64,000 nucleotides of DNA, from positions 11,225-75,224 of the forward strand of contig CAIYES010000095.1 of NCBI GenBank assembly GCA_903925275.1, read 5' to 3'. Shown in pieces: positions 26,185 through 48,600 of this stretch. The translations under genes and the position numbers were made by a program. Position 1 is the first letter of the stretch. The number at the start of each line of letters is the position of its first letter. The notes beneath the pieces are model-generated. The model saw only the letters and a program-made list of their open reading frames with translations. It made no database searches and was not told the DNA's origin. The stretch comes from an uncultured Bacteroidales bacterium. Lineage in GTDB: Bacteria; Bacteroidota; Bacteroidia; Bacteroidales; FEN-979.

Positions 26185-26668
26185 AATCCTAATCAAACAG
26201 GCTGCATTCATATTTGTTTTTATCAGTATGAGTGTTTTATGTGGAACAGGTTGCAAAAACAGCGATAACAAAGAGTTGTACCATAAATTTCCAAATAGAA
26301 ACTGGGCAAGGTTCAATATCCTGCGTTTTGAAATTCCAGTAATAAATGTAGAAAAATTGTATAATGTATATTTATTTGCTTGCTTTTCGCCCGAATTTCA
26401 ATACGAAAAGCTTGAATTCAATATGGTTATGAATACTTCGGCAGGCGAAGAGCGGATAAACAAATACGAGATGAACGTCAGATCAAAATCAGGGACTTTT
26501 CTTGTGAATTGTAAAAATGATTCCTGCCAGGGAATCATCTTGTTGAAGAGAGAACTTAACCTGGCAAAATCAGGTATCCTGAGCATTGAGATTGAAAATC
26601 TTACACCCCGGTTAAAGACCGAAGGAATAATAGGGGTTGGTATCCGGATGGTTCCATCAGGAAAGTAA
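26165..26668 (+). CDS. GldH-like lipoprotein
   Basis: Lipoprotein-type signal ending LCGTGC. Size and sequence pattern (Y..F....W.....F.F, C-terminal GIIGVGIRM) resemble gliding-motility lipoprotein GldH as I recall it. Confidence 0.45.
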   Translation: MSGINNRILIKQAAFIFVFISMSVLCGTGCKNSDNKELYHKFPNRNWARFNILRFEIPVINVEKLYNVYLFACFSPEFQYEKLEFNMVMNTSAGEERINKYEMNVRSKSGTFLVNCKNDSCQGIILLKRELNLAKSGILSIEIENLTPRLKTEGIIGVGIRMVPSGK

Positions 26669-27127
26669 TTTTATTGCTTGTATTTTATCTTCATGGATTT
26701 GTTGAACCAACTCATCCAGATTTTTGAATTTTTTTTCATCCCGGATGCGATCAATGAAATAAACCACGAGGGTTTTGCCATACAAATCGGCAGAAAAATC
26801 AAATAAGTTTATCTCAACAGTCATTGTTTTCCCATCAATGGTAGGGCGGATTCCGGCATTGGCCATGCCGTTATAAACAATGTGGTTTATTTCAGCCTTT
26901 ACAGCATACACGCCATGTGCCAGTAAAAATGGTTTATGTTTCAGCAATTCAAGGTTGGCCGTCGGGAATCCCAATGTTCGTCCAAGGTGGTTGCCATGTA
27001 CAACCAGGGCATGAATCAGATAAACAGATCCCATTAATTCGTTGGCTTTACGGATGTTTCCTTTAGCGAGTGCATCAAGGACTTGCGAAGAATTAAGGTC
27101 GAGGCTCATGATGAAGCAAAGCTCCAA
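26657..27127 (-). CDS. ribF: Riboflavin kinase domain protein, apparently a 5'-truncated ribF lacking the FMN adenylyltransferase domain
   Basis: VVHGNHLGRTLGFPTANL, GVYAV, NAGIRPT and DLYGKTLVVYFIDRIRDEKKF align with the C-terminal half of RibF. The protein is only 156 aa, and only the tail of the N-terminal domain is retained. Confidence 0.8.
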   Translation of the reverse strand: MELCFIMSLDLNSSQVLDALAKGNIRKANELMGSVYLIHALVVHGNHLGRTLGFPTANLELLKHKPFLLAHGVYAVKAEINHIVYNGMANAGIRPTIDGKTMTVEINLFDFSADLYGKTLVVYFIDRIRDEKKFKNLDELVQQIHEDKIQAIKLLS

Positions 27128-27130
27128 TGG

Positions 27131-28033
27131 TTAATAAACAGGTGGTTTCTCTTTTTTACTTAAACGTTTAATCATAACCAGTTCATAAACGGCATACGCA
27201 TAATGAGCCCATACACCGGCCAACATGATGAGCAGGGTAATTATCATCCACAATGGCGCAATCGGCGTCCAGAGTTCCCTGGAGGGCACTTCTGCCTTAT
27301 AATATTGCTTATGAACACCCCAGTTTATCACATTTTGGCCCTGGACATTGCCAAATTTATCGCTTTCTTCAATTTTTGCGATAACAGTAAGATTTCCCAG
27401 CGTATCTCCAACAATTTCTTTTGGAAATTCAAGGGTTCCAGATCCACTTTCGTCCAGTGCTATTTCACCGATTTTCAACAAGCTGAAAAGTCTGGGAATA
27501 TATATTAGTAGTGTTTCTTTGGGGATAGCTACATCTTCGCCTTTTTCATTTTTCTGGGTTGCAGTTATTTTTAATACCCGGAGAGAGTCCTCAATGGTGA
27601 AAAACAGCCGGATTTTTGCTGGCTTGGCTGAAAAGGAGGCTTCGGCAGTGGGGTATTTGTTTGTGCCAGTGAATTTTGCAGTATAGGCCACCATGCCATC
27701 TTTTTCGATTGGCAATCCTGCTGCAGGGCATTTGAAAATGGCATTTCCCTCCTGATCGGTTGCAGCCTTTCCCAAGGATCTGCTCACTTTTCCGTCAGAT
27801 GCAGAAAAATCAATAAAAGCATTTTTCAGGAAAAACGAAGCATCTCCCTTATTAATACTCAGGGTTGCAATGAGTAAAACAGAATCAGAGCCACACAGGT
27901 AATTAAGTGAAAGGCGTGATTCAACCGGTTTAATAGTTGAGTCCGGCTTTTCTGCCGTGTTTGAATATGATGGCTTTACAGCCAAGGCAGAAGTAAGCAA
28001 AAAAACAATTAATAACGCGATAACTCTTTTCAT
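27131..28033 (-). CDS. Hypothetical exported protein with a C-terminal TM anchor; last gene of the cytochrome/quinone module
   Basis: Signal peptide, beta-rich body with no Cys or heme motifs, and C-terminal helix PLWMIITLLIMLAGVWAHYAYAV. Confidence 0.45.
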   Translation of the reverse strand: MKRVIALLIVFLLTSALAVKPSYSNTAEKPDSTIKPVESRLSLNYLCGSDSVLLIATLSINKGDASFFLKNAFIDFSASDGKVSRSLGKAATDQEGNAIFKCPAAGLPIEKDGMVAYTAKFTGTNKYPTAEASFSAKPAKIRLFFTIEDSLRVLKITATQKNEKGEDVAIPKETLLIYIPRLFSLLKIGEIALDESGSGTLEFPKEIVGDTLGNLTVIAKIEESDKFGNVQGQNVINWGVHKQYYKAEVPSRELWTPIAPLWMIITLLIMLAGVWAHYAYAVYELVMIKRLSKKEKPPVY

Positions 28034-28062: not shown

Positions 28063-29376
28063 TTAAATGAGAACATCTTCCTTTTTTCCCTCACCTTCCA
28101 ATCCGGAAACAGGAACAATGGTAATAAATTTTGAAGCCAGGGTGAAAAGAAGACAAAATACAGCAACCCCTGCTGCCGTAAGGCTCCATTCGACCCATGT
28201 TGCAGTATAGTTAAGCCATTCGGGACGTGCATCCTGTATCGGCAGATATGGAGATTCAAGTGTTGGAACGACAATAATATAACGGTTTAGCCAGAGTGCA
28301 ATTATAACTACAATTGCTGTGAGCGTAATATTGGTGATAGTTCTAAGTTTAGCAATTCCAATTACCAGCAAGGGCAAAAGCACGCCAACGTAATTTGAAA
28401 TGATGAATGGCCAGTAGAATTCTTTGAAAAGCAATTGGATAAGCAATTCATCATTTTTTTCGGAACCATACCATTTTGTAAGGTAGTCGCTGAAAGTAAA
28501 GTAGCCGAAAAATGCAGCAAGAACAAGCATGATAACTCCAACAGCGACAAAATGTTTTTTCGTAATATATTCTTCGAGATGGTAAACTTTTCTGAAAACC
28601 CACATGCACAAAATAAGTACTGCACTTCCGGAATAGACTGCAGCAATGACGAAATAAGGTCCGAATATGGTGCTGTGCCAGCCAGGTTGCAGGGTAACGC
28701 TGAAAATCCAAGCCAACACAGAGTAAACGATGATAGCGATTGAAATAACCATCGCTGCCATAATATCTGTTGCCCTGTTTAAACGTTGTTGTTGTTCGGG
28801 GGTTCCCGTATAGCCAAGAGCAAGTGCTTTATAGATTTTTTTTCTCCAATTCGGAAGTTGAAGAAGTTCGTAATCTCTCAGTGTGGCCAGGTCGCGCAGT
28901 ACTGCAAGATAGAGGAAGATAAAACACCCGAATATATCGGTAGAGATCGCGATAACGTCCCAGGTGATAGGTGATTGGATTCTTCCGAAGAGCACCAGGT
29001 AAGGCAATCTATCAAGTCGTCCGATGCATAGCAGGATAAAACATGGGCCGATCAACAACGAGATGACTGTAATAAATTCGGCCATCCTGATTATCGGTTT
29101 ACGCCAAGCGGTTTTAAACAGGTGAAGGGTTCCTGAGATGAGTGCCCCCGCATAACTGACCCCCATAAAGAAAATAAAATTCACAATATAGACTCCCCAA
29201 ACCACATTGTCGCGCATTCCCGTAACTTCATGGCCATAAATAACCTGATTAAGAAAGGCAAAGACACCCAATCCTATCACCATAAGCAGAAAAAGGATCC
29301 AGGCGTATCCCTGAATACTGGTTCGCTCGAGTTGGGGGGCGAACTCTTTTAACGGGTTTTTTTGTTGTAGTTCCAT
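28063..29376 (-). CDS. NrfD/PsrC/HmcC-like polytopic quinone-interacting membrane subunit
   Basis: 437 aa with about 10 TM helices and an N-terminal pattern typical of the NrfD family. It lies immediately downstream of the TAT-exported FeS subunit. Confidence 0.8.
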   Translation of the reverse strand: MELQQKNPLKEFAPQLERTSIQGYAWILFLLMVIGLGVFAFLNQVIYGHEVTGMRDNVVWGVYIVNFIFFMGVSYAGALISGTLHLFKTAWRKPIIRMAEFITVISLLIGPCFILLCIGRLDRLPYLVLFGRIQSPITWDVIAISTDIFGCFIFLYLAVLRDLATLRDYELLQLPNWRKKIYKALALGYTGTPEQQQRLNRATDIMAAMVISIAIIVYSVLAWIFSVTLQPGWHSTIFGPYFVIAAVYSGSAVLILCMWVFRKVYHLEEYITKKHFVAVGVIMLVLAAFFGYFTFSDYLTKWYGSEKNDELLIQLLFKEFYWPFIISNYVGVLLPLLVIGIAKLRTITNITLTAIVVIIALWLNRYIIVVPTLESPYLPIQDARPEWLNYTATWVEWSLTAAGVAVFCLLFTLASKFITIVPVSGLEGEGKKEDVLI

Positions 29377-29378
29377 GG

Positions 29379-30341
29379 TTAAGGTTTATTTTTTTTACTG
29401 TATGGAGTATCCTTGTACCTTTCTTTAATTGCGGGATCCAAGTCGCCAAAGCCGCGTTCCACTTCGAATTGCCGTTCGACAGGAGGCAAGTAATAAACGC
29501 AGGGGCGGGTTCCCAGTGTTTCAAGATAACGGTATCCGGCCCGGTCGCTGATAAGTTTGCTGAACTGATATGTTTCGGTTCCATTGGTAACCGTATCCTC
29601 ATCAACATCGCCAAAGTAGATAACGCCCATGGGACAGGCAGAAACACAATATGGAACTTTTCCTACCCGGATCAGATCGGGACAGAAATCACATTTCGAG
29701 ACAGTCCCCTCTCTTCCCGGACTACCGGCCTCTGGTGAATAGGGCTCTTTATCTTCATCAAATTCAGCATAATGTTTCCATGCAAAAACACGGGTAGAAT
29801 AAGGGCAGCCAGTCATACAAAACTTACAGCCGATGCAGCGTTCGTTGTCGATGAGTACGATTCCGTCGCTGCGCTTATAGGTTGCGCCAACCGGGCAAAC
29901 GCTTACACACAGGGGGTTGTCACAATGGAAACAGGGTTTCGGGAACCAGTATGGAGAGGTTTTTTCAGAATCCTGCAAGAGGTATACCTTCATGAATTCC
30001 TGACTTTTTGGAAGATGATGGCCTTTCTGGCAAGCTTCCACGCATTTACGTGCATTCTTGCATTTTCCAAGATCGATAACCATCACGAATTTTCGACCGG
30101 GGATGCCTTTATGGGATTCCTCGGTTGAAACACGGGGAAGTTTAAGCAACCCTTTATCGACTTCCATGATTTCGCCATTGGTTGTAAGAACTTTTACCTT
30201 TTCTCCGGTTTCTGCAGCCGTTGCGTCAACATAAGCTGCAATAAGCCCACCACCCAGGGCAACCCCGGCGCCTGCAATTATTCCTTTTTTCAGGAACTGA
30301 CGACGGGAGTTTTTTTGGCAATTATTCGATGTTTCTTCCAC
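29379..30341 (-). CDS. TAT-exported 4x[4Fe-4S] ferredoxin subunit (NrfC/HybA/HmcB/DsrO-like)
   Basis: Twin-arginine signal SRRQFLKKGIIAGAG and four Cys clusters (CKNARKCVEAC, CFHCDNPLCVSVCP, CIGCKFCMTGCP, CDFC...CVSACP). Confidence 0.9.
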   Translation of the reverse strand: MEETSNNCQKNSRRQFLKKGIIAGAGVALGGGLIAAYVDATAAETGEKVKVLTTNGEIMEVDKGLLKLPRVSTEESHKGIPGRKFVMVIDLGKCKNARKCVEACQKGHHLPKSQEFMKVYLLQDSEKTSPYWFPKPCFHCDNPLCVSVCPVGATYKRSDGIVLIDNERCIGCKFCMTGCPYSTRVFAWKHYAEFDEDKEPYSPEAGSPGREGTVSKCDFCPDLIRVGKVPYCVSACPMGVIYFGDVDEDTVTNGTETYQFSKLISDRAGYRYLETLGTRPCVYYLPPVERQFEVERGFGDLDPAIKERYKDTPYSKKNKP

Positions 30342-30352
30342 GTGATTAAAGT

Positions 30353-30976
30353 TTAATGAGATTCATGATATCCATTAATCATGCTTTTAAAATTGCTTGT
30401 CGGGTTTTTTCCGATGGTGCAAAAATAGACATGAACACACATGATGATGCTGACAGTAAAACCGGCGACAATGTGAAGCAGGTCAGTAAGATCCAGCCCG
30501 CTGAAACCAAAAAAGCTTTTAACTGTAATTTCCGGATACAGAAGTCCCCAGCCTGAAAGAATTACAAACGGAATAAATCCATACATCAAAACAACGTAGG
30601 TAACCTGCTGCAATGGATTGAACTTGGTTTCTGTGCTCACCGGAAAAGGTGCATCTTCTTTTTTGAAAATACCAATGGTATAGTAAATGAATTGTTTTTG
30701 AAGACGTACTATAAAGCCTTTAACAGGAATTACATAATAGGTTCCGTTGGATGTAAAGAGATTGCCAATAAAAAATACGCCATAGCTAATTGTAAGAATA
30801 ATTCCGGCAATATTGTGAACGGAAACAGCAGCATTAAATTTTACAACTGTTCCCGGATTTGAAAACTGGATACTTAAACCGGTCAATATTAAAACAAGGC
30901 AGAGGAACGCATTCGTCATGTGCCAGATTCTGATCCAGACAGGATACAGATAAAGCCGTTCGGATAGATGATTCAT
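30353..30976 (-). CDS. Membrane b-type cytochrome (PhsC/FdnI/HyaC-like, 4 TM)
   Basis: 207 aa with the RIWHMTNA motif in TM1 and conserved His residues in TM helices (SVHNIAG, LLHIVAG, MCVHVYF). Confidence 0.7.
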   Translation of the reverse strand: MNHLSERLYLYPVWIRIWHMTNAFLCLVLILTGLSIQFSNPGTVVKFNAAVSVHNIAGIILTISYGVFFIGNLFTSNGTYYVIPVKGFIVRLQKQFIYYTIGIFKKEDAPFPVSTETKFNPLQQVTYVVLMYGFIPFVILSGWGLLYPEITVKSFFGFSGLDLTDLLHIVAGFTVSIIMCVHVYFCTIGKNPTSNFKSMINGYHESH

Positions 30977-30979
30977 AGG

Positions 30980-32005
30980 CTAATCGGATTTTTTTATGCG
31001 CAGAGCTGCGTGTATAATTATGGCCAGAATTGTCAAGCCAAAAATGATGATGCTAAAAATATTAAGTGTATTGCTTTTGTCGGGACCGATGGTAGTAGCA
31101 TCTCCCATCAACAGACCCCTGACCAGGCCCTCTTTCTGAATATTTTCACTTACCTGGTGCTTATAGAGTGAAGCATAGAGTATTGAATTTTTTGAATGGC
31201 ATGATTCACATTTACGCACAGCCATTTTTTTGGGCATGATGTGATGGGCTACAACCAATGTGTCTTCGTTTTTAGCATGGCATTCAATACAACGGACATT
31301 TGTAAAATGAGATGCCTGATTTGGAAGCCATTCATGTTTTTGAAGAATGTTCGGCTTTTTTTTGTCGGTGAGCAATTGATAATTGTTGATGTCCCCGTGA
31401 CAATTTAAGCAAATGAGATTATCGTATGTTATGGTTTCCTTCAGAATCTCGTTGGTACGGGCATTTATTTTATATGTATGTGCATTGTGGCACATCCAGC
31501 AGGTAAAATCTTTGCTATGTGTTTCGGAATGGACACTGGCCTGAAATTCCGATTCAATCTGTTCAAATTTGAACTTGGCATATTTTTCATCGCCGCCGTG
31601 GCAATCGATGCAGTTGGCCTTTGCTTCCATGCGCAGGTTTCCTGCATGCGGGAAAGTTCCATAATCTTCGGAATGGCAGTCAGTGCATTTAAATTCACGA
31701 TGGTTTGATGTATAAAAGATATCGCGGTTTAATATCAATTCTGCATACATCCTTTTAGTTACAGTGTTTTTCGATTCAGCATTTTCGTAGGAGTACTTTG
31801 ACTGGCCGTGACATTTGAGGCAGTTTTCGTTTTCCGCAGCATTCTTAAATTTTGAAAGATCAATTTTGGAAGGAGTTATCTGTTCGGTTTGAACTTTTTC
31901 ATCGGGTGTTGAATCAGAAGTTTTTACTAAGGTGAAGGCAAGTGTAAAAACCATCAGCAATACCAAAACTACCCATGCCGGTCGTATATTTGTTTTATAA
32001 AACAT
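30980..32005 (-). CDS. Heptaheme c-type cytochrome with N- and C-terminal TM helices
   Basis: Seven CxxCH motifs: CLKCH, CTDCH, CIDCH, CWMCH, CLNCH, CIECH, CESCH. Hydrophobic helices at both termini. Confidence 0.9.
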   Translation of the reverse strand: MFYKTNIRPAWVVLVLLMVFTLAFTLVKTSDSTPDEKVQTEQITPSKIDLSKFKNAAENENCLKCHGQSKYSYENAESKNTVTKRMYAELILNRDIFYTSNHREFKCTDCHSEDYGTFPHAGNLRMEAKANCIDCHGGDEKYAKFKFEQIESEFQASVHSETHSKDFTCWMCHNAHTYKINARTNEILKETITYDNLICLNCHGDINNYQLLTDKKKPNILQKHEWLPNQASHFTNVRCIECHAKNEDTLVVAHHIMPKKMAVRKCESCHSKNSILYASLYKHQVSENIQKEGLVRGLLMGDATTIGPDKSNTLNIFSIIIFGLTILAIIIHAALRIKKSD

Positions 32006-32042: not shown

Positions 32043-32089
32043 AAAAAATAAAAGGGTGTTAACAGAAAAGTCCCGTTAACACCCTTTTT
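32043..32089 (-). terminator. Bidirectional rho-independent terminator separating the monoheme cytochrome c gene from the heptaheme operon
   Basis: 10-bp stem GGGTGTTAAC/GTTAACACCC, flanked by an A-run on one side and a T-run on the other. Confidence 0.7.
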
Positions 32090-32116: not shown

Positions 32117-32536
32117 TTACTTTTTCAATGTACGCATAAAGGCAACCAATGCCCAGCGATCGCCGATGGCAGGAATTTTTGTTTCATACTTGGGCATTTC
32201 ATCGCGCCCTTTATCTGTACGGTAAAGGAGTTCTCCGTCGGTGGAACTCTGGAAAGCGGCAGCGGAGAAATCACCCGGGAAAGTTTTCAGAGAGGCGGCT
32301 TTCGGACCATCACCTAAACCTTTGCTTCCGTGGCATGATTTGCAATGTTTTGCCCATAGATCTTTGCCTGTAGCAACATCAGTATTTGCAGGCGCTTTCA
32401 TGGCTTTGTCCTTATCTGGTACCGGCCATGGTTTTGCTTTTGCCTGTGTCTGTGCCTGCGCGAGGTTACCAAACAGGAAAACCACAGCAATAACTGCAGC
32501 TACCAATAATGATGCGATTTTTTGTGTTGTTTTCAT
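32117..32536 (-). CDS. Class I monoheme cytochrome c, periplasmic
   Basis: Signal peptide, a single CKSCH motif and a distal Met candidate (DEMPKY). Confidence 0.85.
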   Translation of the reverse strand: MKTTQKIASLLVAAVIAVVFLFGNLAQAQTQAKAKPWPVPDKDKAMKAPANTDVATGKDLWAKHCKSCHGSKGLGDGPKAASLKTFPGDFSAAAFQSSTDGELLYRTDKGRDEMPKYETKIPAIGDRWALVAFMRTLKK

Positions 32537-32578: not shown

Positions 32579-33661
32579 TTAAAAGGTCCACAACCGGGTT
32601 ATATTGAATCCAAGAAGAATAGCTCCGTTATAAGGATTATTGCGATTATACATTACATTTTCTTGCGGAACGAGCCCATTTGCTGCGCTCAGGAATATCT
32701 GAAATGCATGGGTACTGGTAGAAATTTCAACACCAAGACCGAAATTTGGCCATGGGGCAGTATTCAGGTAAGTCATGAGCGGTTGAGAATAACTTAACAT
32801 TATGGAAGCCTGTGGGCTGATTTTGACTTTTCCGATACCTGAAATGTTGATGTTATCGTTTTTCATACCATTGGCATGGTTATAATTCATTTCGGTAAAA
32901 TCAACAAGGTTATAATGTACCCATGAGATCCCCAATTGGGCTGAAAACTCTTTACAGAACCTGCGGGCAAACAGCATTTCGGCAAAATAGGAAAACCGGT
33001 AAGAGGCTTTAAAGGTGTGATCAAAAAGTGAGCCCAAGTCGGACTTATTGGCTCCGTTGAGCCCTGTCGCCTGATTATAGGTTATATAGTTTAAAGCATA
33101 ATTCGTGTCGTTTTGTATGACCTGGTTTGCGATGCTTCTTTGGAATGCAGTATCTTTAACAATGGAGTTGAAATCAAGGTCCGATGATAACTTATTATTT
33201 CCAAGAAAAGACTTATTCCTTGCATCGAGCGCAACATTCCCATAAAATGTGATGGTAAGCGGGAAACCGCCTTTCCGCTGGCGTGCAATGATATATTTGA
33301 CGCTGAAATCCTGGAGCATCTTTAACTTTGTGGTTCCGAAACCAACCTGCAGGTCTTTTGTAATGGTGAAATTCAATCCGATGCGGATATTGGAACCGCC
33401 CCAGATGCCATAGAGATCGGACCAGTGTTGCTGGATCGTGCCAAAATCATGTTGGATAACTGCCTCAAGGGTTTTCGCAGGGGGAAGGCAAACGGTTCGG
33501 TCTGCAATGAAATATCCGCTTTCAAAAGGTGCTTTTTCCAATGGTTTCCGGGTTGGTTGTTCCGGAATCGAATCCTGTGCAATAACCATTCCAAAACTGC
33601 TCAGCATGAAGATGAACCCTAAAAATAATCGTTTCATTTTACCCATCGTATATGTATGCAT
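32579..33661 (-). CDS. Outer-membrane beta-barrel protein (DUF5777-like by recollection)
   Basis: Signal peptide, alternating beta-strand pattern, C-terminal aromatic residue (RLWTF) and an early HDFG motif. Confidence 0.6.
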   Translation of the reverse strand: MHTYTMGKMKRLFLGFIFMLSSFGMVIAQDSIPEQPTRKPLEKAPFESGYFIADRTVCLPPAKTLEAVIQHDFGTIQQHWSDLYGIWGGSNIRIGLNFTITKDLQVGFGTTKLKMLQDFSVKYIIARQRKGGFPLTITFYGNVALDARNKSFLGNNKLSSDLDFNSIVKDTAFQRSIANQVIQNDTNYALNYITYNQATGLNGANKSDLGSLFDHTFKASYRFSYFAEMLFARRFCKEFSAQLGISWVHYNLVDFTEMNYNHANGMKNDNINISGIGKVKISPQASIMLSYSQPLMTYLNTAPWPNFGLGVEISTSTHAFQIFLSAANGLVPQENVMYNRNNPYNGAILLGFNITRLWTF

Positions 33662-33690
33662 TTCGATTAATTATTAATGTGAACAATCAA

Positions 33691-34083
33691 TTAATTATTT
33701 TTTGCTCCCTGGCTGATCCATTTGTAAACAGAATCGGCATTTGCCTTTGTGCAATAACCTGACATACTACCCCCCGTAGACATTTTCCGGTAAAGAATGC
33801 TATTCCCCGGGGCTGCTACAATAACCATATCCGCCGTATTCATCAAGGCAAGATAGGATTTTCCTTCAACTAAAACGGGAGCAACCTGACCAACCCCATG
33901 ACAACGAATACAATCTGCGGTAAAAATGGGTTGTATTTCTCCCGCAAAGCTGATTTGACCGGGTACAGGAGGTGGTGGTGCGGGTGTTGGCGGATCAGGC
34001 AGAATGGAATCCTTTGAACAGGAAGAAAGGATAAAAATCACAGACAGAATTGTGATCACTTTTTTCAACGTTCTAATTTGCAT
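33691..34083 (-). CDS. Lipoprotein with a Pro-rich linker and a monoheme cytochrome domain (Planctomycete cytochrome C / PSCyt1-like)
   Basis: Lipobox LSSC, linker PDPPTPAPPPPVPG, and IQPIFTADCIRCHG with C-terminal KWISQGA. Confidence 0.7.
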   Translation of the reverse strand: MQIRTLKKVITILSVIFILSSCSKDSILPDPPTPAPPPPVPGQISFAGEIQPIFTADCIRCHGVGQVAPVLVEGKSYLALMNTADMVIVAAPGNSILYRKMSTGGSMSGYCTKANADSVYKWISQGAKNN

Positions 34084-34167: not shown

Positions 34168-34202
34168 GAAAAAAAGGCTTCAGAGAACCTGAAGCCTTTT
34201 TT
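34168..34202 (-). terminator. Bidirectional rho-independent terminator after the multiheme lipoprotein gene
   Basis: 9-bp stem AGGCTTCAG/CTGAAGCCT with a 5-nt loop, flanked by A/T runs on both sides. Confidence 0.7.
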
Positions 34203-34220: not shown

Positions 34221-35570
34221 TTAGAGACCAGCAGCGTTCAATGCTGCAATAGTATTGGTCATAAGAGCTGTTACGTAGGCGGTGTTATGAATACCAAGAC
34301 TGTACTCTCTTAAGCAGAATTGGAAATTGATAAGGGCTCCCACCTGAACATTCAATAATTTTGGGAATTTAGGTTGTGCACTACCACTCATTTTCCAATA
34401 TCCAGCAGGATTTGATGCTGCATCATAGATATCAAGGTACCCGTCATAATTGTTGGTGGTTAAACCCCACCAGAGATTTGCCGAGGAGGCTTCTCTGTGC
34501 AGAATGTCATGTCCACCGCCGGCTGCGTTAATTTTATCAGCCAGCTGATTCAGCAATGTTTGAACAGATGCTCTTGTATTGACCCATTTGGCGGAAGTTT
34601 TATCCAGTGGCTCATCAATATGACAGCCAGTAACATTACAACCGTTAAAATTCCAGGTAGTACCGGAGCCCAGGGCGGATTCTTTTGCGTTTCTTACGTT
34701 GAATGAGTGACCCCCGGCAATACCGGTCATTGGATTTGCCATATGGCAATCAACGCACGAAGCATGGGTGGTATGGTATGAATTGCTGTAAGCCATGGTC
34801 CCTGCAAATTCAATAGCACCAACTCCAGCATATACAGCTCCAACGGCACCATAATGAATGTGCATTCTGTAGGATGGTTTCACTCCGTGATTTGTCACAC
34901 CGGCAGTAGAATCATACTGAACAGTCAGGGGGAAGTTCTTCAGAGAGTCATAATTTAAAACTCTTCCAGACGCATCATAACCACATGTCAAAGGACGTGG
35001 CTGATGACATTTAGCGCATAAATTGCCGCTTCCGCTATCGGCGGGCAGATCAATCGTTTTAGCTCCGGCCCACATGGTCATAGAAATAGGGGCTGTGGTG
35101 GTAAGTGCAATATCTGATGCACCATATGTCGTATGTAAACTGCTGTGGCAGGTCCAGCAACCGATTTCACCAAATGTGCTGGCAGCGTCGGGAAAATATT
35201 GGTTTACCCATTTTCCTCCAGTAAAAAGAAAAGCAGAGGAAGTATTGTTTTGGCATACATAAACAAATGCTTTTTGTTCATGGCAAGGAGTACAGGCAGT
35301 ATTTCCTGCTTCTTCGAATGCTGTCGCACCCCATGAGTGTTTTGCCATTTGAAATTCCACTGCAATCCTGTCAACCATCGTGGCAGTATGACATATTTTG
35401 CAGGTTTCATTGGCATCTTTACCATTTGTTCCGTTTATTCCGTTTGTTCCGTCTTTACCATTAATACCAGCGACTCCCTGGGGGCCTTCTTTGGTACAGG
35501 CAGTGAATAAAAAAGCCGCAGCCGCGATCATCAATCCGGCAGCAAAAAATAATTTGTGTAAATTTTTCAT
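34221..35570 (-). CDS. Multiheme c-type cytochrome lipoprotein with an N-terminal collagen-like (GXY)8 segment
   Basis: Start at MKNLHKLFF (ATG at 35570), lipobox LFTAC, then GPQGVAGINGKDGTNGINGTNGKD. Five CxxCH motifs (CKICH, CTPCH, CWTCH, CAKCH, CVDCH) plus one CxxxxCH (CNVTGCH). Confidence 0.85.
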   Translation of the reverse strand: MKNLHKLFFAAGLMIAAAAFLFTACTKEGPQGVAGINGKDGTNGINGTNGKDANETCKICHTATMVDRIAVEFQMAKHSWGATAFEEAGNTACTPCHEQKAFVYVCQNNTSSAFLFTGGKWVNQYFPDAASTFGEIGCWTCHSSLHTTYGASDIALTTTAPISMTMWAGAKTIDLPADSGSGNLCAKCHQPRPLTCGYDASGRVLNYDSLKNFPLTVQYDSTAGVTNHGVKPSYRMHIHYGAVGAVYAGVGAIEFAGTMAYSNSYHTTHASCVDCHMANPMTGIAGGHSFNVRNAKESALGSGTTWNFNGCNVTGCHIDEPLDKTSAKWVNTRASVQTLLNQLADKINAAGGGHDILHREASSANLWWGLTTNNYDGYLDIYDAASNPAGYWKMSGSAQPKFPKLLNVQVGALINFQFCLREYSLGIHNTAYVTALMTNTIAALNAAGL

Positions 35571-35829: not shown

Positions 35830-36525
35830 TCAGCCGGTTTCGCTGATCTGACGCAACTGTTTCGGATTGAGGATCTCTAAGGCGTTTCCAGCAAGTGTTA
35901 AAATTCCTTCTTCTTTAAATTCCTTTAATATCCGGATCGCGCTTTCTTTCGACATGCCGGAGAGGTCGGCCAGGTCCTGTCGCGAGATGGTCAGTTCAAA
36001 CGGATTCTGGCAATAAATTTTATCAGAAAGGTAAAAGAGTACATCGGCAATCCGGCCGTGCATTTGTTTTTGTGTGAGGCTTATTACCTGGTCAAAGTTA
36101 AAAATGGACTGCAGCGACACCCGTTTAATAAATTCTTCGGCAAAATCAGCATTTTCCCGGATCAATTTTTTAAAGATGTTGACATCAACAAGGCATGCCT
36201 GACAATCCTCAACGGCAGAAGCTGAATAATAGTGGCGGTTATCGACATAGATTCCCGGACCGAAAATATAATCTACCGGTTTAATCAGCGCAAGGATTAG
36301 GTTCTTTCCATATCCCTCAATATATATTTTAGCAAGGCCGGAGGTAACGCATACAAAGTAGGGAGAAGGTGTGCCTTGTTTGAAAATGATTTCGCCAGCC
36401 TTATAACTTACCTTGAACCGGCTGCTGTTAATCAAAGAAATTTCGAAGGGACTCAGGTTTTTAAATATGGAAGCTTTACAGTTGCAATCGGCGCAATTGG
36501 AAGAATGATGTAATTTATTTACCAT
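35830..36525 (-). CDS. Crp/Fnr-family transcriptional regulator with an N-terminal Cys cluster
   Basis: cNMP-binding-like beta-roll, C-terminal helix-turn-helix (SRQDLADLSGMSKESAIRILKEF) and an N-terminal CADCNC motif. Confidence 0.85.
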   Translation of the reverse strand: MVNKLHHSSNCADCNCKASIFKNLSPFEISLINSSRFKVSYKAGEIIFKQGTPSPYFVCVTSGLAKIYIEGYGKNLILALIKPVDYIFGPGIYVDNRHYYSASAVEDCQACLVDVNIFKKLIRENADFAEEFIKRVSLQSIFNFDQVISLTQKQMHGRIADVLFYLSDKIYCQNPFELTISRQDLADLSGMSKESAIRILKEFKEEGILTLAGNALEILNPKQLRQISETG

Positions 36526-37631: not shown

Positions 37632-37661
37632 GTTGTATTTTTTGGCAAAGGTACAGGAAAA

Positions 37662-37782
37662 ATGGTGAAATGGTGAAATGGTGAAATGGTGAAATGGTGA
37701 GATGGTGAGATGGTGAGATGGTGAAATGGTGAAATGGTGAGATGGTGAAATGGTGAAATGGTGAGATGGTGAAATGGTGAAA
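37662..37782. repeat. 8-bp tandem array, 15 units (ATGGTGAA / ATGGTGAG), in the asd / LTD-protein divergent intergenic region
   Basis: Counted directly. Unit order is a a a a g g g a a g a a g a a. The array ends 30 nt from the asd ATG. Confidence 0.95.
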
Positions 37783-37871: not shown

Positions 37872-40508
37872 ATGAAAACTTTTTATTCCAGCATTGTCAA
37901 TATTGTCTGCATTGCCTGCATTGTCTGCATTTCCTGCATTGTCTGCATTTCCAGCATTTCCCAGGCCCAGGTGACGGATGATTTTTCGGATGGAAATTTT
38001 TCCAGGAACCCGCAATGGCTAGGGGATACCATGCAGTTTGAGGTCAATACGGCCGGCCAGCTTCATTTAAAAGGTCAAAGCAGCGATACATCCCTATTAA
38101 TGACAAGAAGTGAATCCAGCTCAACCACTGAATGGCGTTTTTGGATAAAATTATCGTTCAACACCTCCTCAAATAATTATGCACGAATCTATCTCGCGTC
38201 AGACACTATAAATGTATTTTCCGCGATGAATGGCTATTTTCTTCAGACGGGTGGTGGGGATGACAGCATCTTTATCATAAAACAGTCGGGCATGGTTCAG
38301 GAAAAGATATACCGTGTTCAATTTTATAAAACGTTTCATTCAACAAATACGTTTCGGATGAAAATCACACGTGATGAAGCAGGGGGCTGGGAGGTAATGA
38401 TTGATACAACCGGGGGATTTAATTATTATCAGGACGGTAGGTTTTCAGACAATTCACTCTTTCCGGCACGATGGATTGGCGTTTGTTGCCGCTATACATC
38501 CAGTAATGCAACGAAATTTTATTTTGATGATTTTTATATAGGGCCGATCATTTATGATACCATTGCACCTTCAGTTATCTCTCAGGAATTTCAGGCAGAG
38601 AAAGTTATTAGGGTTGCTTTCTCAGAGACGATAGAAAGAAGAAACGCAGAGACTCCTGAGAATTATCAACTCGGCCCGGATGTCGGATCTCCTGATTCTG
38701 TCATTATGGATGTGCAGGAGCCTGCCGTAGCTTTGTTTCTTCATGAACCAATGAAAGAAGGCATTTATGGTTCATTGCATATTCAGGGGGTTACTGATTT
38801 GGCTGGAAACCTGATGAAAGATACCGTGGTTCCGGTATGCTGGTATCGGCCGAAAGTTTTTGACATCCTTATACATGAGATCATGGCAGACCCGGATCCT
38901 CCTGTTGAATTGCCGGATGGTGAATTTGTAGAGTTGTTTAACCGCACAGATTTCCCAATAAATCTAAAGGGTTGGAGCTTCAGTTATGGAAGCTATATCA
39001 AGATATTCCCCTCAACGGTCATTTCACCAAAGGGATATTTGCTAATTGTAAAAGATTCATCCTATTTAAGTTACGCAGTATGTGCGGTTTTATTCACATC
39101 TTCCACTTCCTTATCAAATGAAGGAACTGCCCTGATACTGAAAGATCAGTGGAATCATGTTATTCACACTGTTTCATACACCCCGGAATGGTACAAAGGT
39201 TTATTTAAAGGAGAAGGCGGATGGTCGCTGGAGATGATAGATCCGGGAAATCCATGTGGTTGTGGAGAAAACTGGGGCGCATCGCAGGCAAAATCCGGAG
39301 GAACACCCGGGAGTCCAAATTCTATTGGCAAATCCAACCCTGATCTGAAAAGTCCGGTTCCCATGAGAGCCGTGATATCTGATTCGTCATCCTTGGAAGT
39401 TTACTTTTCAGAAGCAATGGACAGCACTTCATTGCTTTCACCGGCAGGCTGGATTATAGGTTCCCCGGATGGGGCGATCCACCCCGTTAGGGCTGAACCG
39501 GTTTCTCCCGGGTTTATTTCAACAAAACTATTGTTCAGCAAAGCTTTTGAACCAGGGATATCTTACACGCTCAATGTTTCGGGTGATTTTAAAGATTGTA
39601 CGGGTAACTATTGCGACACTACCCGAACAGTCAGGTTTGCGATTCCGGATTCCGTGACCCTTCATGACATCGTCATCAACGAAATTTTATCCAATCCAGC
39701 CAGTGGAGGAGCAAGATTTGTTGAGTTAATCAACCGTTCAGAAAAAATTATTGATCTGCAAACCCTGGTATTGGCGAACCGTGACACTGTAACTGGATTT
39801 CTTCCGGGTTCAACACCGCTTTTCCCTTCCGGATATTTATTGTTCCCCGGAGATTATATCGCGCTGACTTCAAGCTCTGATGAAATCCGGGACCGGTATC
39901 ATTCACCTTTCCCGGAAGCCATCGTTTCGATGCAGGGATTTCCAGTGTTCGGAGACGACACAGGAACTGTGATCCTAGCCAGAAAAGATAATTTAATGGT
40001 CATTGACAGGATTCACTATGATCCGGATATGCATTATCCATTGCTGGCAACTTCAGAAGGAGTGTCGTTGGAGCGGACCAATCCGGACATGCCCTCCGAA
40101 AGCAAAGACAATTGGCATTCGTGTGCTGAAACGGCAGGATTTGCTACTCCTGGTTTCATAAATTCGCACTTTGTCATTCATGAAACAACGGATAGGGAAA
40201 TTGTTATCGAACCGTGTGTTTTTTCACCCGACAATGATGGGCATGATGATTTATTGTCCATCATCGTCCGTGAAAATGACCCAGACTGTACGGTCAGCAT
40301 TGAAATTTATGATTCGAAAGGACGAATAATCAACCAATTAGTCAATAACGTGTTAACTGGCAGCGAGGGAATTTTCATCTGGGATGGGATGACCTCTAAC
40401 AAGAACAAGGCACCGCTTGGCTTTTATGTTTTCCTGATTGAAATAACAAGGCCGGATGGTACGGTGAAGCACTATAAAGGGACTGCCGTGCTGGGGGGAA
40501 GACTCTGA
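37872..40508 (+). CDS. Secreted protein with two lamin-tail domains (LTD) and a C-terminal beta-sandwich carrying an FSPDNDGHDD motif
   Basis: LTD signatures HEIMADPDPPVELPDGEFVELFN...LKGW and NEILSNPASGGARFVELIN. The signal peptide ends SQAQ. The C-terminal FSPDNDG motif resembles T9SS type-B/FlgD-Ig-like domains. Confidence 0.7.
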   Translation: MKTFYSSIVNIVCIACIVCISCIVCISSISQAQVTDDFSDGNFSRNPQWLGDTMQFEVNTAGQLHLKGQSSDTSLLMTRSESSSTTEWRFWIKLSFNTSSNNYARIYLASDTINVFSAMNGYFLQTGGGDDSIFIIKQSGMVQEKIYRVQFYKTFHSTNTFRMKITRDEAGGWEVMIDTTGGFNYYQDGRFSDNSLFPARWIGVCCRYTSSNATKFYFDDFYIGPIIYDTIAPSVISQEFQAEKVIRVAFSETIERRNAETPENYQLGPDVGSPDSVIMDVQEPAVALFLHEPMKEGIYGSLHIQGVTDLAGNLMKDTVVPVCWYRPKVFDILIHEIMADPDPPVELPDGEFVELFNRTDFPINLKGWSFSYGSYIKIFPSTVISPKGYLLIVKDSSYLSYAVCAVLFTSSTSLSNEGTALILKDQWNHVIHTVSYTPEWYKGLFKGEGGWSLEMIDPGNPCGCGENWGASQAKSGGTPGSPNSIGKSNPDLKSPVPMRAVISDSSSLEVYFSEAMDSTSLLSPAGWIIGSPDGAIHPVRAEPVSPGFISTKLLFSKAFEPGISYTLNVSGDFKDCTGNYCDTTRTVRFAIPDSVTLHDIVINEILSNPASGGARFVELINRSEKIIDLQTLVLANRDTVTGFLPGSTPLFPSGYLLFPGDYIALTSSSDEIRDRYHSPFPEAIVSMQGFPVFGDDTGTVILARKDNLMVIDRIHYDPDMHYPLLATSEGVSLERTNPDMPSESKDNWHSCAETAGFATPGFINSHFVIHETTDREIVIEPCVFSPDNDGHDDLLSIIVRENDPDCTVSIEIYDSKGRIINQLVNNVLTGSEGIFIWDGMTSNKNKAPLGFYVFLIEITRPDGTVKHYKGTAVLGGRL
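37891..37962. repeat. 9-bp tandem array, about 8 units (GCATTGTCT / GCATTGCCT / GCATTTCCT), inside the signal-peptide coding region of the LTD protein
   Basis: Counted directly. It translates in frame as IVNIVCIACIVCISCIVCISSIS. ATTGCCTGC is the reverse complement of the GCAGGCAAT unit at 62958-63083. Confidence 0.9.
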
Positions 40509-45699: not shown

Positions 45700-48600
45700 A
45701 TGAGAACAATTTTCAGGCTTTTTGTAGTGCTTGGATTTATTTTTGCTATTCCAGGTCTTTCTGTTTTCAGTCAGGTTAGCATCAAAACCGATGGCAGTCC
45801 ATGCGACCCTTCAGCCATGCTGGATGTGAATGCAAAAGACCGGGGGTTACTCCTCCCGCGTATGTCGGTTGCTGCACGCAACCTGATTCTATCTCCCGCA
45901 ACCGGCCTGCTAATCTACAATACGACTTCGAACCAATTCAATTATTACAATGGCAGTCACTGGTTCCAGTTGGAAACAACCTTTATCATTTTAAAAACCG
46001 CAGGAAGCCCAAGCACAGGCAGCAACGGTGTTGCCATTGGCACTTCACTGGGAACACAGGCGGAAAGTACGGCGATGCTCGACATCAATGATCCGGCCAG
46101 GGGTATGCTGATCCCGAGAATTTCAACCTCAGCCCGCGACCTTATCCCATCGCCTGCCAATGGTTTGATCATTTACAACACATCTTCAAATCTCCTCAAT
46201 TATTACAACAATACCCGTTGGGTTACCGTGTGTGCCAGTTCAACGGGGATAACGGGTGCCAGCGGAAGCCAGGCCTCCGTCGGGATAGCTATCAAATCAG
46301 ACAATTCAAACGCGGATCCATCCGCAATACTGGATGTATCGGCTACCGACAAGGGGGTGCTGATCCCACGACTTACGAATGCCCAGCGTGATGCTATTCT
46401 TCCTGTTACCGGACTGGTCATCTATAATACCATAACCAACAATATTGAATTTTACAATGGCTCAGGCTGGTACCAGTTTGTCACAAACCTGCTCTCATCC
46501 CCATTGGCCGGTATACATGTGCCAACCGGAACAGAGATCACCTGGAACTGGAACAGCGTTGCCGGTGCCATCGGTTATAAATGGAATACGGTCGATGATT
46601 ACACAACGGCGACCGACTTGGCTGCCGTCACCACGAAGACCGAAACAGGTCTCATCCCCATCACAGCCTATTCGAGATATGTATGGGCCTACAACAGTTG
46701 CGGGGTATCGGCAGCGACCACGCTGACACAGTCGACCACAGCCTGGGCGTGCGGCTCTTCATTCACCATTGATCATGTAGCCGGCGATGTGGCACCTGTC
46801 ACAAAAACCGTTACCTACGGTACAGTTCCGAATATTGCGGGTAGTCCTGAAAAATGCTGGATTACCAGAAACCTGGGTGCCGACCAGCAGCCAACGGCCG
46901 TTGATGACGCATCCGAAGCATCGGCAGGCTGGTACTGGCAGTTTAACCGGAAACAGGGTAACAAGGTTGATCAGGATGGCTTCACCCGCAAGCCCGCTGC
47001 CACCTGGACCACGAATATTCTTGAAAGCACTTTCTGGGAGGCCGCCAACGACCCCTGCACCCATGCTCTTGGCAGCGGGTGGCGCATTCCTACTTATACG
47101 GAATGGAACTCAGTAGTAGCGCTCTTTCCAAACCATCTTAATCCATGGATATCTGATTTGAAGCTGCATGCAGCCGGTCGTCTCATCGTAGCCGATGGTT
47201 CACTATTCCAACGAGGTCTCTTCGGTGAATACTGGTGCAGCAATGGTGACGGTCCTTTAATCCCCCCCCCAGGTGTAAATACGAGCATGACCCTCTTCTT
47301 CATCGCTGGAATTATCGAAGCGGGTTTTGGGGTTAACTTTAATGCAACCGGGGAGTCGATGCGCTGCCTCAGAGATGAAGCAAGTTTCACCACTACCCCC
47401 ACCCTCACCACAACGGCTGCCGGCAATATTACTACGACAACGGCAACCGCTGGCGGCAATGTCCTCAGCGAAGGAGGGGTAGCAGGAATTGTAAAGGGTG
47501 TATGCTGGAGCACTTCACCTTTGCCCACCATTGCCGACAACCACACGACCGACGGCAGCGGAACCGGTGTGTTTACAAGCAATTTCAGCGGCCTCACGGC
47601 GAATACCCTTTATTATGCAAGGGCTTATGCTACCAATGGTTCCGGAACCGCTTACGGGAATGAGGTAAGTTTCAGGACCTTCTTCACCTGCGGTACTTCC
47701 ATCACAGTTAACCATGTTGCGGGCGATGTGGCGCCGGTTAATAAAACCGTTACCTACGGCACCGTTGCAAACATTCCCGGCGAACCAGCAAAATGCTGGA
47801 TCACCCGTAATCTGGGCGCCGACCAACAGGCTGCCGTTGATGACGATAACACCTCTGCCGCTGCAGGCTGGTACTGGCAGTTTAACCGCAAACAGGGGTA
47901 CCAGGTTGATATGAACGGGGCCAGAACACCCAATACCAGCTGGATAACCTCAATAAATGAAAACAGTGACTGGGAGGCTGCCAAGGATCCCTGTACCCTT
48001 GAACTTGGCGCTGGCTGGCGTATCCCGGCCATGTCGGAACTGGAGAACCTGGATGCAGGCGGAGCCTGGACCAATGAGAGTTTTCCTTGGAATTCCGGGT
48101 TAAAACTGCATGAAGCCGGGATCATACATGAAAATGATATGTTATTCAACCGCGGAAAGACAGGCTTTTACTGGAGCAATACACAGAACGGCGCTTCAAA
48201 GGGATGGAACCTGTTCTCCGGCGTTGGAACATGTTCCATTGAATCCAACACCAAAGTCAGTGGTATGTCGCTGCGCTGCCTCAACGATGGCGGTGCTACC
48301 ACAACCACACCTGCTGTTACAACGTTGGTTGCCAGCAATATTGCTGCTACTGCAACAACAGGCGGGGGCTATGTTTACAGTGACGGCGGAACTGCTGTAA
48401 CTTCCCGTGGAATTTGCTGGAGTAACGTACCAAATCCTACTTTGGCAAACAGCCATTCAACCAACGGCAGTGGTTCGGGTTTGTTTACTGGCAGCCTCGC
48501 CGGTCTCACACCGAATACCCTGTATTATGTATGTGCATATGCTACCAATGGTAACGGCACTGCCTATGGAAATGAAATAACTGTGACAACCACTACCAGC

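Follow-up and report, generated by a model that had tools for sequence, protein, structure and literature searches.

Only three quinol oxidases of the Geobacter inner membrane have a demonstrated role in extracellular respiration. One of them, CbcBA, has also been suggested as a marker of this capacity in other phyla. It consists of CbcA (GSU0594), a seven-haem cytochrome with a C-terminal transmembrane (TM) helix, and CbcB (GSU0593), a dihaem cytochrome b with four TM helices; it is required for respiration below about −0.21 V and is linked to low yields. CbcC, CbcD and CbcE, the remaining products of the Cbc5 cluster, are a 12-haem cytochrome, a 2-haem cytochrome and a membrane protein, respectively. 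Joshi et al. (2021) noted, in one sentence, cbcBA homologues in Bacteroidetes (Prolixibacter, Marinilabiliales, Labilibaculum) that are annotated as 'thiosulfate reductase-like', and they reported fused forms in Chloroflexi; putative extracellular electron transfer (EET) genes have also been reported from lake Bacteroidetes. Here, we focus on a five-gene operon from an uncultured Bacteroidales bacterium of the GTDB lineage FEN-979, which lies in a stretch of 64,000 nucleotides (contig CAIYES010000095.1 of assembly GCA_903925275.1, positions 11,225 to 75,224), referred to below as the window. The operon consists of a CbcA/CbcB-type core, that is, a heptahaem cytochrome c and a cytochrome b, and an optional cassette encoding an iron–sulfur (Fe–S) protein, an NrfD-family membrane subunit and an anchored protein that we term X300. 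The parts belong to known families, but their combination is not known to have been described.

Quinone-interacting modules built on NrfD have been described in several respiratory systems, where they release protons outside and may translocate ions. Geobacter Cbc4 (CbcSTU), Shewanella SirCD, Escherichia coli NrfBCD and Desulfovibrio NhcABCD all use a four-cluster ferredoxin, exported by twin-arginine translocation (TAT), and a cofactor-less NrfD subunit to carry electrons between the quinone pool and multihaem cytochromes of the periplasm. As described, these systems contain neither an FdnI-type cytochrome b nor an immunoglobulin (Ig)-like TM subunit, whereas the cassette described here extends a CbcBA-type operon and does so optionally. 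The HmcABCDEF and DsrMKJOP complexes come closer in subunit composition, in that they unite a cytochrome b, an NrfD subunit, a periplasmic Fe–S protein and a cytochrome c. However, the cytochrome b of Hmc and Dsr (HmcE and DsrM) is of the NarI type and is coupled to a cytoplasmic, HdrD-like HmcF or DsrK, which the Bacteroidales operon lacks.

All five genes are on the minus strand and are separated, from the heptahaem gene to that of X300, by gaps of 3, 11, 2 and 29 base pairs (bp; coordinates in table 1, given as window positions throughout). A first-pass annotation of this DNA had proposed the order heptahaem cytochrome, four-TM cytochrome b, TAT-exported Fe–S protein and NrfD-like subunit. 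Open reading frames (ORFs), which have the coordinates that it gave, domain matches and independent gene calls on the identical public contig, which recovered the same five genes, all agree with this order. As to whether the operon is one already well described, the first two genes do belong to the CbcBA family, but no described operon was found that corresponds to the five-gene set. In the literature searched, we found no description of the Fe–S/NrfD/Ig-like extension, of its dependence on CbcAB, of its presence/absence polymorphism or of the wider cluster with a DUF5777 barrel, and a search for a Bacteroidota module that unites the two subunit types, cytochrome b and NrfD, gave nothing specific.

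The conservation of the operon was followed in two surveys. A scan of one genome per species returned 193 relatives of the heptahaem cytochrome, and the best 80 of these supply the species-level loci counted here; the second survey was seeded with NrfD on metagenome contigs and is independent of the heptahaem. The five-gene order far exceeds chance. The Fe–S, NrfD and X300 genes directly follow the cytochrome b gene in 57 of 80 species loci, while all three are absent from 19 and the remaining four loci are cut by contig ends; the order recurs in all informative metagenome loci. A single conserved operon does combine both quinone-interacting subunit types with a membrane-anchored heptahaem. 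Seeding with NrfD placed the cytochrome b gene immediately before the Fe–S gene in 53 of the 54 loci with enough upstream DNA, the heptahaem gene in 36 of 37 informative loci and the X300 gene downstream in 61 of 61. The sole exception, locus L128 (metagenome contig Ga0209249_1000020), has the order Fe–S, NrfD, X300, monohaem cytochrome c, heptahaem and cytochrome b, with the heptahaem/b pair 1.4 kilobases (kb) away; the cassette can thus lie upstream of the core and still belong to the same cluster.

Linkage is therefore one-sided. The Fe–S/NrfD pair is always accompanied by cytochrome b, but the heptahaem/b pair occurs without Fe–S and NrfD in 19 of 80 species loci, and it also lacks the cassette in all four loci examined from other phyla (Geobacteraceae, metagenome-assembled genomes (MAGs) labelled Chlorobi and Deferribacteres, and a contig related to members of the Thermodesulfobacteriota). 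Because the cassette is never found without the b gene and the core is often found without the cassette, it is the cassette that depends on the core and not the reverse. In close relatives (87–89% heptahaem identity) the gap extends from just after the stop codon of the b gene to that of X300, a clean 3.2-kb indel, and the 19 absences are spread over several branches in average-linkage clustering of heptahaem sequences. Pairwise identities across the five genes correlate (r = 0.87–0.94), with means of 80–81% for the Fe–S protein and NrfD, 65% for the heptahaem and cytochrome b, and 53% for X300. Most simply, the cassette has been inherited with the core and repeatedly lost. The hosts among the best 80 are MAGs labelled Bacteroidota almost throughout (Bacteroidales, Prolixibacteraceae, Draconibacterium, Lentimicrobiaceae), and many come from anoxic or stratified, iron- or humic-rich lakes, to judge from their MAG names (Lac Pavin and ELA, for example). 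The deepest-branching clade (L076, L077, L079, L095–L098 and L107) also carries a second, divergent Fe–S/NrfD pair, which is encoded on the other strand a few kb past the downstream end of the operon and has 22–36% identity to the pair in the window.

Cytochrome b matches one family only, PF01292 (E = 8e-23), with no NarI-type match. Its best NCBIfam model is PhsC, but the score, 179 bits, falls short of the 204-bit cut-off. A sequence search of the PDB with cytochrome b gave nothing meaningful. His19, His54, His168 and His182 are invariant and form the FdnI ligand pattern. A search of 1.84 billion representative proteins yielded 580 clusters related to cytochrome b, and many of the best are fusions of 500–550 amino acids in which a segment with identical seven-haem spacing precedes the b domain. 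These natural fusions are strong evidence that the heptahaem and cytochrome b function as a single unit. The PhsC match and the source names of the relatives agree with the 'thiosulfate reductase-like' label of Joshi et al.

A link to characterised CbcBA is provided by Oryzomonas japonica (Geobacteraceae), whose cytochrome b was recovered by a search seeded with a distant relative. The O. japonica locus comprises a divergent sigma-54 response regulator, two small ORFs, a seven-haem CbcA of 351 amino acids with a C-terminal TM helix, CbcB, a 12-haem cytochrome, and two more genes (for 280 and 180 amino acids) at the CbcD and CbcE positions; because this layout matches published Cbc5, we regard the locus as bona fide Cbc5. 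Cytochrome b of the window is 32% identical to Oryzomonas CbcB over its full length (E = 6e-32), and the heptahaem is 25% identical to CbcA over 191 residues (pairwise E = 1e-12), with haems 1–6 in register. Both seven-haem proteins end in a C-terminal helix containing '...TLNI...' with a His near its cytoplasmic end, and in the window, as in Geobacter sulfurreducens, a PF01292 dihaem cytochrome b with four TM helices is encoded directly downstream. By these alignments, the heptahaem and cytochrome b form a CbcA/CbcB-type pair.

Outside this pair, the operon differs from that of Geobacter. Downstream, Cbc5 encodes CbcC, CbcD and CbcE, where the window has the Fe–S protein, NrfD and the Ig-like anchor; upstream, it has the divergent sigma-54 regulator BccR and small ORFs, where the regulator found in the window is of the Crp/Fnr family and a sigma-54 activator is absent. 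Since CbcC, CbcD and CbcE are cytochromes and a membrane protein, not an Fe–S/NrfD pair, the five-gene operon is no straight orthologue of Cbc5. A BccR-type regulator may be a trait specific to Desulfuromonadia and not defining for the protein family. The heptahaem also differs from Geobacter CbcA in the position of the seventh haem and in an anchor-like N-terminus in the clade of the window.

In 81 orthologues of the heptahaem, all seven CxxCH motifs and eight further His residues are invariant, and the gene is always directly followed by that of cytochrome b in both species and metagenome loci. The TM helices predicted by the first-pass annotation at both ends of the protein fared unequally: the C-terminal helix (residues 316–334) is universal, but the N-terminal hydrophobic segment resembles a retained anchor only in the clade of the window and looks like an ordinary cleavable signal peptide in a Lentimicrobiaceae-like clade. 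A comparison of N-termini between clades gave no correlation between this anchor and the presence of the cassette. His332, within the C-terminal helix, is invariant; because cytochrome b already has the full FdnI set of His ligands, this residue may line a quinone site on the cytoplasmic (N) side of the membrane rather than ligate a haem. A profile of the heptahaem produced one weak match in the PDB (E = 0.005).

The cassette begins with the Fe–S protein, in which a twin-arginine motif (SRRQFLKKG) can be read and 15 Cys residues are invariant in a 3+4+4+4 pattern; these probably hold three [4Fe–4S] clusters and one [3Fe–4S] cluster, as in ActB and QrcC. Its best PDB match is PsrB, and it aligns to ActB only at residues 797–992 or so. 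The NrfD subunit matches PF03916 (E = 2e-30) and has about 10 hydrophobic segments. Taken together, a TAT-exported multi-cluster ferredoxin followed by a PF03916 membrane protein answers, by sequence, to the description of an NrfD-type quinone-interacting module. Model and PDB scores, on which the placement of NrfD rests, put it closest to ActC of alternative complex III (ACIII): it scores 181 bits against ActC chain 6f0k_C over residues 26–428 and 154–163 bits against three other ACIII ActC chains, but 31 bits against ActF, and no other solved NrfD-family chain, PsrC included, was matched at E 0.01. When the ActC residues discussed by Calisto and Pereira are mapped onto the NrfD alignment, Ser164, Asp169 and the gate Arg395 are retained as invariant S135, D140 and R365. 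Two of the three proposed quinol-binding residues of ActC are replaced, His139 by an invariant Cys117 and Asp253 by an invariant Ile224, and the quinone site of NrfD may therefore be altered or absent.

The operon resembles ACIII in the full-length similarity of NrfD to ActC, in a 15-Cys Fe–S protein compatible with the clusters of ActB and in a membrane-anchored multihaem cytochrome as partner. It differs in that ACIII has two NrfD-like subunits, ActC and ActF, where a single NrfD gene is present here; in that ActB is a protein of about 1000 amino acids with a molybdopterin-like B1 domain, where the Fe–S protein is much shorter (table 1) and has no B1; and in having a cytochrome b but no ActD or ActE gene.

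The first-pass annotation had instead likened the module to Hmc and Nhc, and a transmembrane redox complex of the Hmc, Nhc or Dsr kind, connecting periplasmic cytochromes to cytoplasmic metabolism or to sulfur respiration, has to be weighed against these results. Cytochrome b and NrfD co-occur in Hmc and Dsr as they do here, and the best NCBIfam matches are DsrO for the Fe–S protein (171 bits, followed by TtrB, QrcC and NrfC) and DsrP for NrfD (85 bits). These scores all fall under their cut-offs of 200 and 350, as does that of the HmcB model on the operon (76 bits against 420), and the score of NrfD against ActC is far higher. Cytochrome b belongs to the FdnI/PhsC type, not to the NarI type, and its partner is the heptahaem, as in CbcBA. 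Genes for DsrM, DsrJ and HmcA are absent from the window locus and sulfur-metabolism genes from the cluster; the reported absence of a cytoplasmic HmcF/DsrK-like (HdrD-like) subunit was correct, with none in or beside the window cluster and none in the syntenic loci. The proposed likeness is thus largely refuted, and we give it hardly any credence.

X300, the last product of the cassette, has no Pfam or NCBIfam match. Its N-terminus is a signal sequence, a TM helix anchors its C-terminal end, and it follows NrfD at every one of the metagenome loci counted above. This agrees with its earlier description as an exported, C-terminally anchored protein of 300 amino acids; suggested there as a possible substrate- or partner-binding subunit, it is indeed co-conserved with the other four. 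A confident AlphaFold2 model (pLDDT 82) predicts two Ig-like beta-sandwiches (residues 38–136 and 139–237) and a long helix (258–294). Foldseek searches with this model found generic Ig/FN3 matches only and hence allow no functional assignment. The most conserved part of the protein is the juxtamembrane and TM region, which includes an invariant His277.

On balance, we think it somewhat more likely than not that the products of the five genes oxidise menaquinol and form the inner-membrane end of a pathway for extracellular (or periplasmic) electron transfer under anaerobic regulation, in which a second quinol site plays an accessory part. What is observed directly is the gene content, the homologies, the linkage and the fact that the cassette is optional; from these we infer the direction of electron flow, the physical association of the subunits, their cluster types and their energetic roles as follows. 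Menaquinol would be oxidised at cytochrome b, from which electrons would pass via two b haems to the seven c haems, held at the periplasmic face by the C-terminal helix of the heptahaem. NrfD would provide a second quinol site on the periplasmic side, in an ActB2/ActC-like module, and the Fe–S protein would wire it to periplasmic cytochromes, most likely to the neighbouring heptahaem. X300 would attach by way of its conserved TM helix and serve as a subunit for docking or structure. Electrons would then move to a monohaem cytochrome c and on to a DUF5777 barrel and lipoprotein cytochromes.

Two points of entry would give this pathway two energetic gears. PhsC-type b subunits can use membrane potential to drive electrons towards low-potential acceptors, as established for Salmonella Phs and in line with the low yields linked to CbcBA, and the PhsC/CbcB-type route could likewise spend membrane potential to reach such acceptors; protons would be released outside on the NrfD route. 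A scheme of this kind would resemble the ImcH/CbcL/CbcBA set of Geobacter. As a general analogy, NapC and NapGH of E. coli also place two quinol-oxidising membrane modules in one operon to feed the same periplasmic sink, but the families are unrelated (the tetrahaem NapC, and NapH) and the sink is a nitrate reductase.

The two sites could also be coupled more tightly, within one supercomplex of all five proteins that acts as a Q-cycle-like or quinone-cycling proton-motive device, or as a potential-sensing switch, built from non-bc1 parts; we consider this improbable. Quinol would be oxidised at NrfD on the periplasmic (P) side, one electron passing via the Fe–S protein to the c haems and the other via dihaem cytochrome b to a quinone at the cytoplasmic side, a route to which we give the same low probability. 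The strict adjacency of the cassette to cytochrome b and their co-inheritance are in line with such coupling, as is the presence of an invariant His in the conserved TM helix of each single-pass subunit (His332 in the heptahaem, His277 in X300). NrfD would have its P-side site beside the Fe–S chain, and an FdnI-type cytochrome b has an N-side site, as established from the structure of Fdn-N; for Dsr, the literature contains a proposal that quinone cycles between DsrP and DsrM. However, the heptahaem and cytochrome b occur without the cassette, at 19 of the 80 species loci as well as in each of the other sampled phyla, and cytochrome b therefore has a complete function of its own. Coupling would also need the b haems to lie within electron-transfer distance of the NrfD site, in which two ActC quinol residues are replaced.

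The reading of the operon as a menaquinol-oxidising module also draws on its neighbours (table 1). Upstream, on the same strand, lie genes for a Crp/Fnr regulator, a multihaem lipoprotein, a monohaem lipoprotein of 130 amino acids, a DUF5777 barrel and a monohaem cytochrome c, in an order that is syntenic across the best 80 species loci. The monohaem cytochrome c is a likely periplasmic carrier. Four Cys residues of the regulator (C11, C14, C59 and C111) are invariant in 61 orthologues, a sign that the protein may hold a redox- or oxygen-sensing cluster of the Fnr kind, though with non-canonical spacing.

Table 1. Features of the five-gene operon and its wider cluster (window positions).
Feature	Position	Strand	Details
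Heptahaem cytochrome c, CbcA homologue	30980-32005	minus	341 amino acids; 7 CxxCH
Cytochrome b, CbcB homologue, 4-TM dihaem	30353-30976	minus	207 amino acids; PF01292
Fe–S protein, TAT-exported four-cluster-type ferredoxin (DsrO/PsrB/NrfC/ActB2-like); cassette gene 1	29379-30341	minus	320 amino acids; Fer4_11
NrfD-family integral membrane subunit, about 10 TM, ActC-like	28063-29376	minus	437 amino acids; PF03916
X300, exported Ig-like protein with C-terminal TM helix; cassette gene 3	27131-28033	minus	300 amino acids
GC-rich hairpin and U-tract	32050-32088	minus	between monohaem cytochrome c and heptahaem genes; 18-pair stem
Soluble class I monohaem cytochrome c	32117-32536	minus	PF00034/PF13442; C65, C68, H69 and M114 invariant; co-conserved
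DUF5777 outer-membrane beta-barrel	32579-33661	minus	PF19089, E = 6e-62; three invariant His; co-conserved
Monohaem lipoprotein of 130 amino acids	33691-34083	minus	one CxxCH; lipobox Cys22, CxxCH and Met107 conserved; weak LIC11213-family match
Multihaem lipoprotein cytochrome, weakly MtrC-like	34221-35570	minus	449 amino acids; 5 CxxCH and one CX4CH
Crp/Fnr-family regulator	35830-36525	minus	PF00027 and PF13545; adjoins the cluster in most loci

These partners bear on where the electrons go. A quinol dehydrogenase for a soluble-substrate reductase (of thiosulfate, polysulfide, nitrite or similar), with the catalytic subunit encoded elsewhere, might be suggested by the near-threshold PhsC score of cytochrome b and by the resemblance of the Fe–S protein to PsrB, NrfC and TtrB. 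In PhsABC, though, PhsC is accompanied by the molybdopterin protein PhsA and by PhsB, whereas no molybdopterin subunit is present at any locus here; no molybdopterin or CxxCK-type catalytic gene was found in about 160 loci, and the conserved partners are cytochromes c, an outer-membrane barrel and lipoprotein cytochromes. We judge this explanation very unlikely.

The same partners would also suit electrons travelling inwards. In this alternative, electrons from extracellular or periplasmic donors such as Fe(II) or reduced humics would pass via the barrel, the lipoprotein cytochromes and monohaem cytochrome c to menaquinone, and the NrfD module would drive the uphill step with proton-motive force, a role proposed for ACIII in iron-oxidising organisms. 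The co-conserved carrier is a His/Met class I cytochrome c, a type that is usually of high potential; a monohaem lipoprotein beside a beta-barrel has the look of a split cytochrome–porin; NrfD is closest to ActC; and many hosts come from iron-rich stratified lakes, with putative EET genes of unknown direction reported in lake Bacteroidetes. On the other side, CbcBA, the sole relative to have been characterised, oxidises menaquinol in reductive EET, and the Fnr-like regulator with its conserved Cys residues suggests anaerobic induction. The host orders are known mostly as fermenters or anaerobic respirers, and neither the window nor the species loci have linked genes for a terminal oxidase or for carbon fixation. 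Some of the hosts are listed as metal-reducing genera by Joshi et al. Overall, we regard inward flow as unlikely.

Several points weigh against menaquinol oxidation by a CbcBA-like module and account for our limited confidence in it. The heptahaem shows weak homology to CbcA (25%), with its seventh haem placed differently, out of register; its AlphaFold2 model, from an alignment of 18 sequences, is poor (pLDDT 44). The regulator is of another type than Geobacter BccR, and the quinol-binding residues replaced in NrfD bear on its proposed second site. The His/Met class I monohaem cytochrome c would fit electron uptake as well, and sequence leaves the direction of flow undecided.

The hairpin between the monohaem cytochrome c and heptahaem genes is found in about 45 loci. 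Its consensus fold has 16 pairs, nine with compensatory changes, around an invariant GGGTG...CACCC core and a variable inner stem. It is likely to be a terminator or attenuator at the 5′ boundary of the five-gene unit that probably sets the ratio of outer-membrane and periplasmic components to those of the inner membrane. A palindromic hairpin at 34170-34202, flanked by an A-run and a T-run, resembles a bidirectional terminator and lies between the genes for the multihaem and 130-amino-acid lipoproteins. A scan for sigma-70 promoters was uninformative (16 sites against 22.8 expected); the model does not cover Bacteroidota promoters.

Further features of the neighbouring genes can be noted. The monohaem lipoprotein is always encoded directly before the DUF5777 barrel (32579-34083, minus strand), and the pair resembles a split cytochrome–porin; no paper that mentions DUF5777 turned up in the literature. 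In the multihaem lipoprotein, a collagen-like Gly-X-Y run comes straight after the lipobox, the CX4CH sixth haem motif is invariant, and an extra divergent paralogue (28–38% identity) stands alongside in L007, L011, L012, L014 and L036. On the other side of the operon, 3 bp past the stop codon of X300, starts a gene for a stand-alone riboflavin kinase (26657-27127, minus strand), which has a Flavokinase domain only and no FAD-synthetase half; it occupies the same position in most loci of the window clade, including those without the cassette.

Beyond the cluster, two tandem repeat arrays, at 37660-37782 (an 8-bp unit, 15 copies) and 37891-37961 (a 9-bp unit, six copies), inflate both mechanical ORFs there. 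They lie between a gene for aspartate-semialdehyde dehydrogenase and a divergent gene for a type IX-secreted protein of 878 amino acids with CHU_C and lamin-tail domains. An ORF for 2076 amino acids on the plus strand (45700-51930) has a G+C content of about 0.52, against about 0.40 in the rest of the window, and weak FN3/Ig-like matches; it may encode a horizontally acquired giant surface protein.

A CbcBA-like core is present in about 190 species-level genomes of Bacteroidota, largely from anoxic or stratified lakes by their MAG names, and it sits inside a complete-looking pathway from regulator to outer membrane. In some loci this core is joined by a second quinone module, which is ActC-like, and by an Ig-like membrane subunit that had not been annotated before; in others it stands without them, and both states recur. 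Were the two modules coupled, they would be a new build of proton-motive quinol:cytochrome c oxidoreductase. The presence/absence polymorphism of the cassette offers a natural experiment on how anaerobes tune energy conservation to the potential of their electron acceptor, and it has a bearing on the respiration of carbon to iron and humic substances in lakes.

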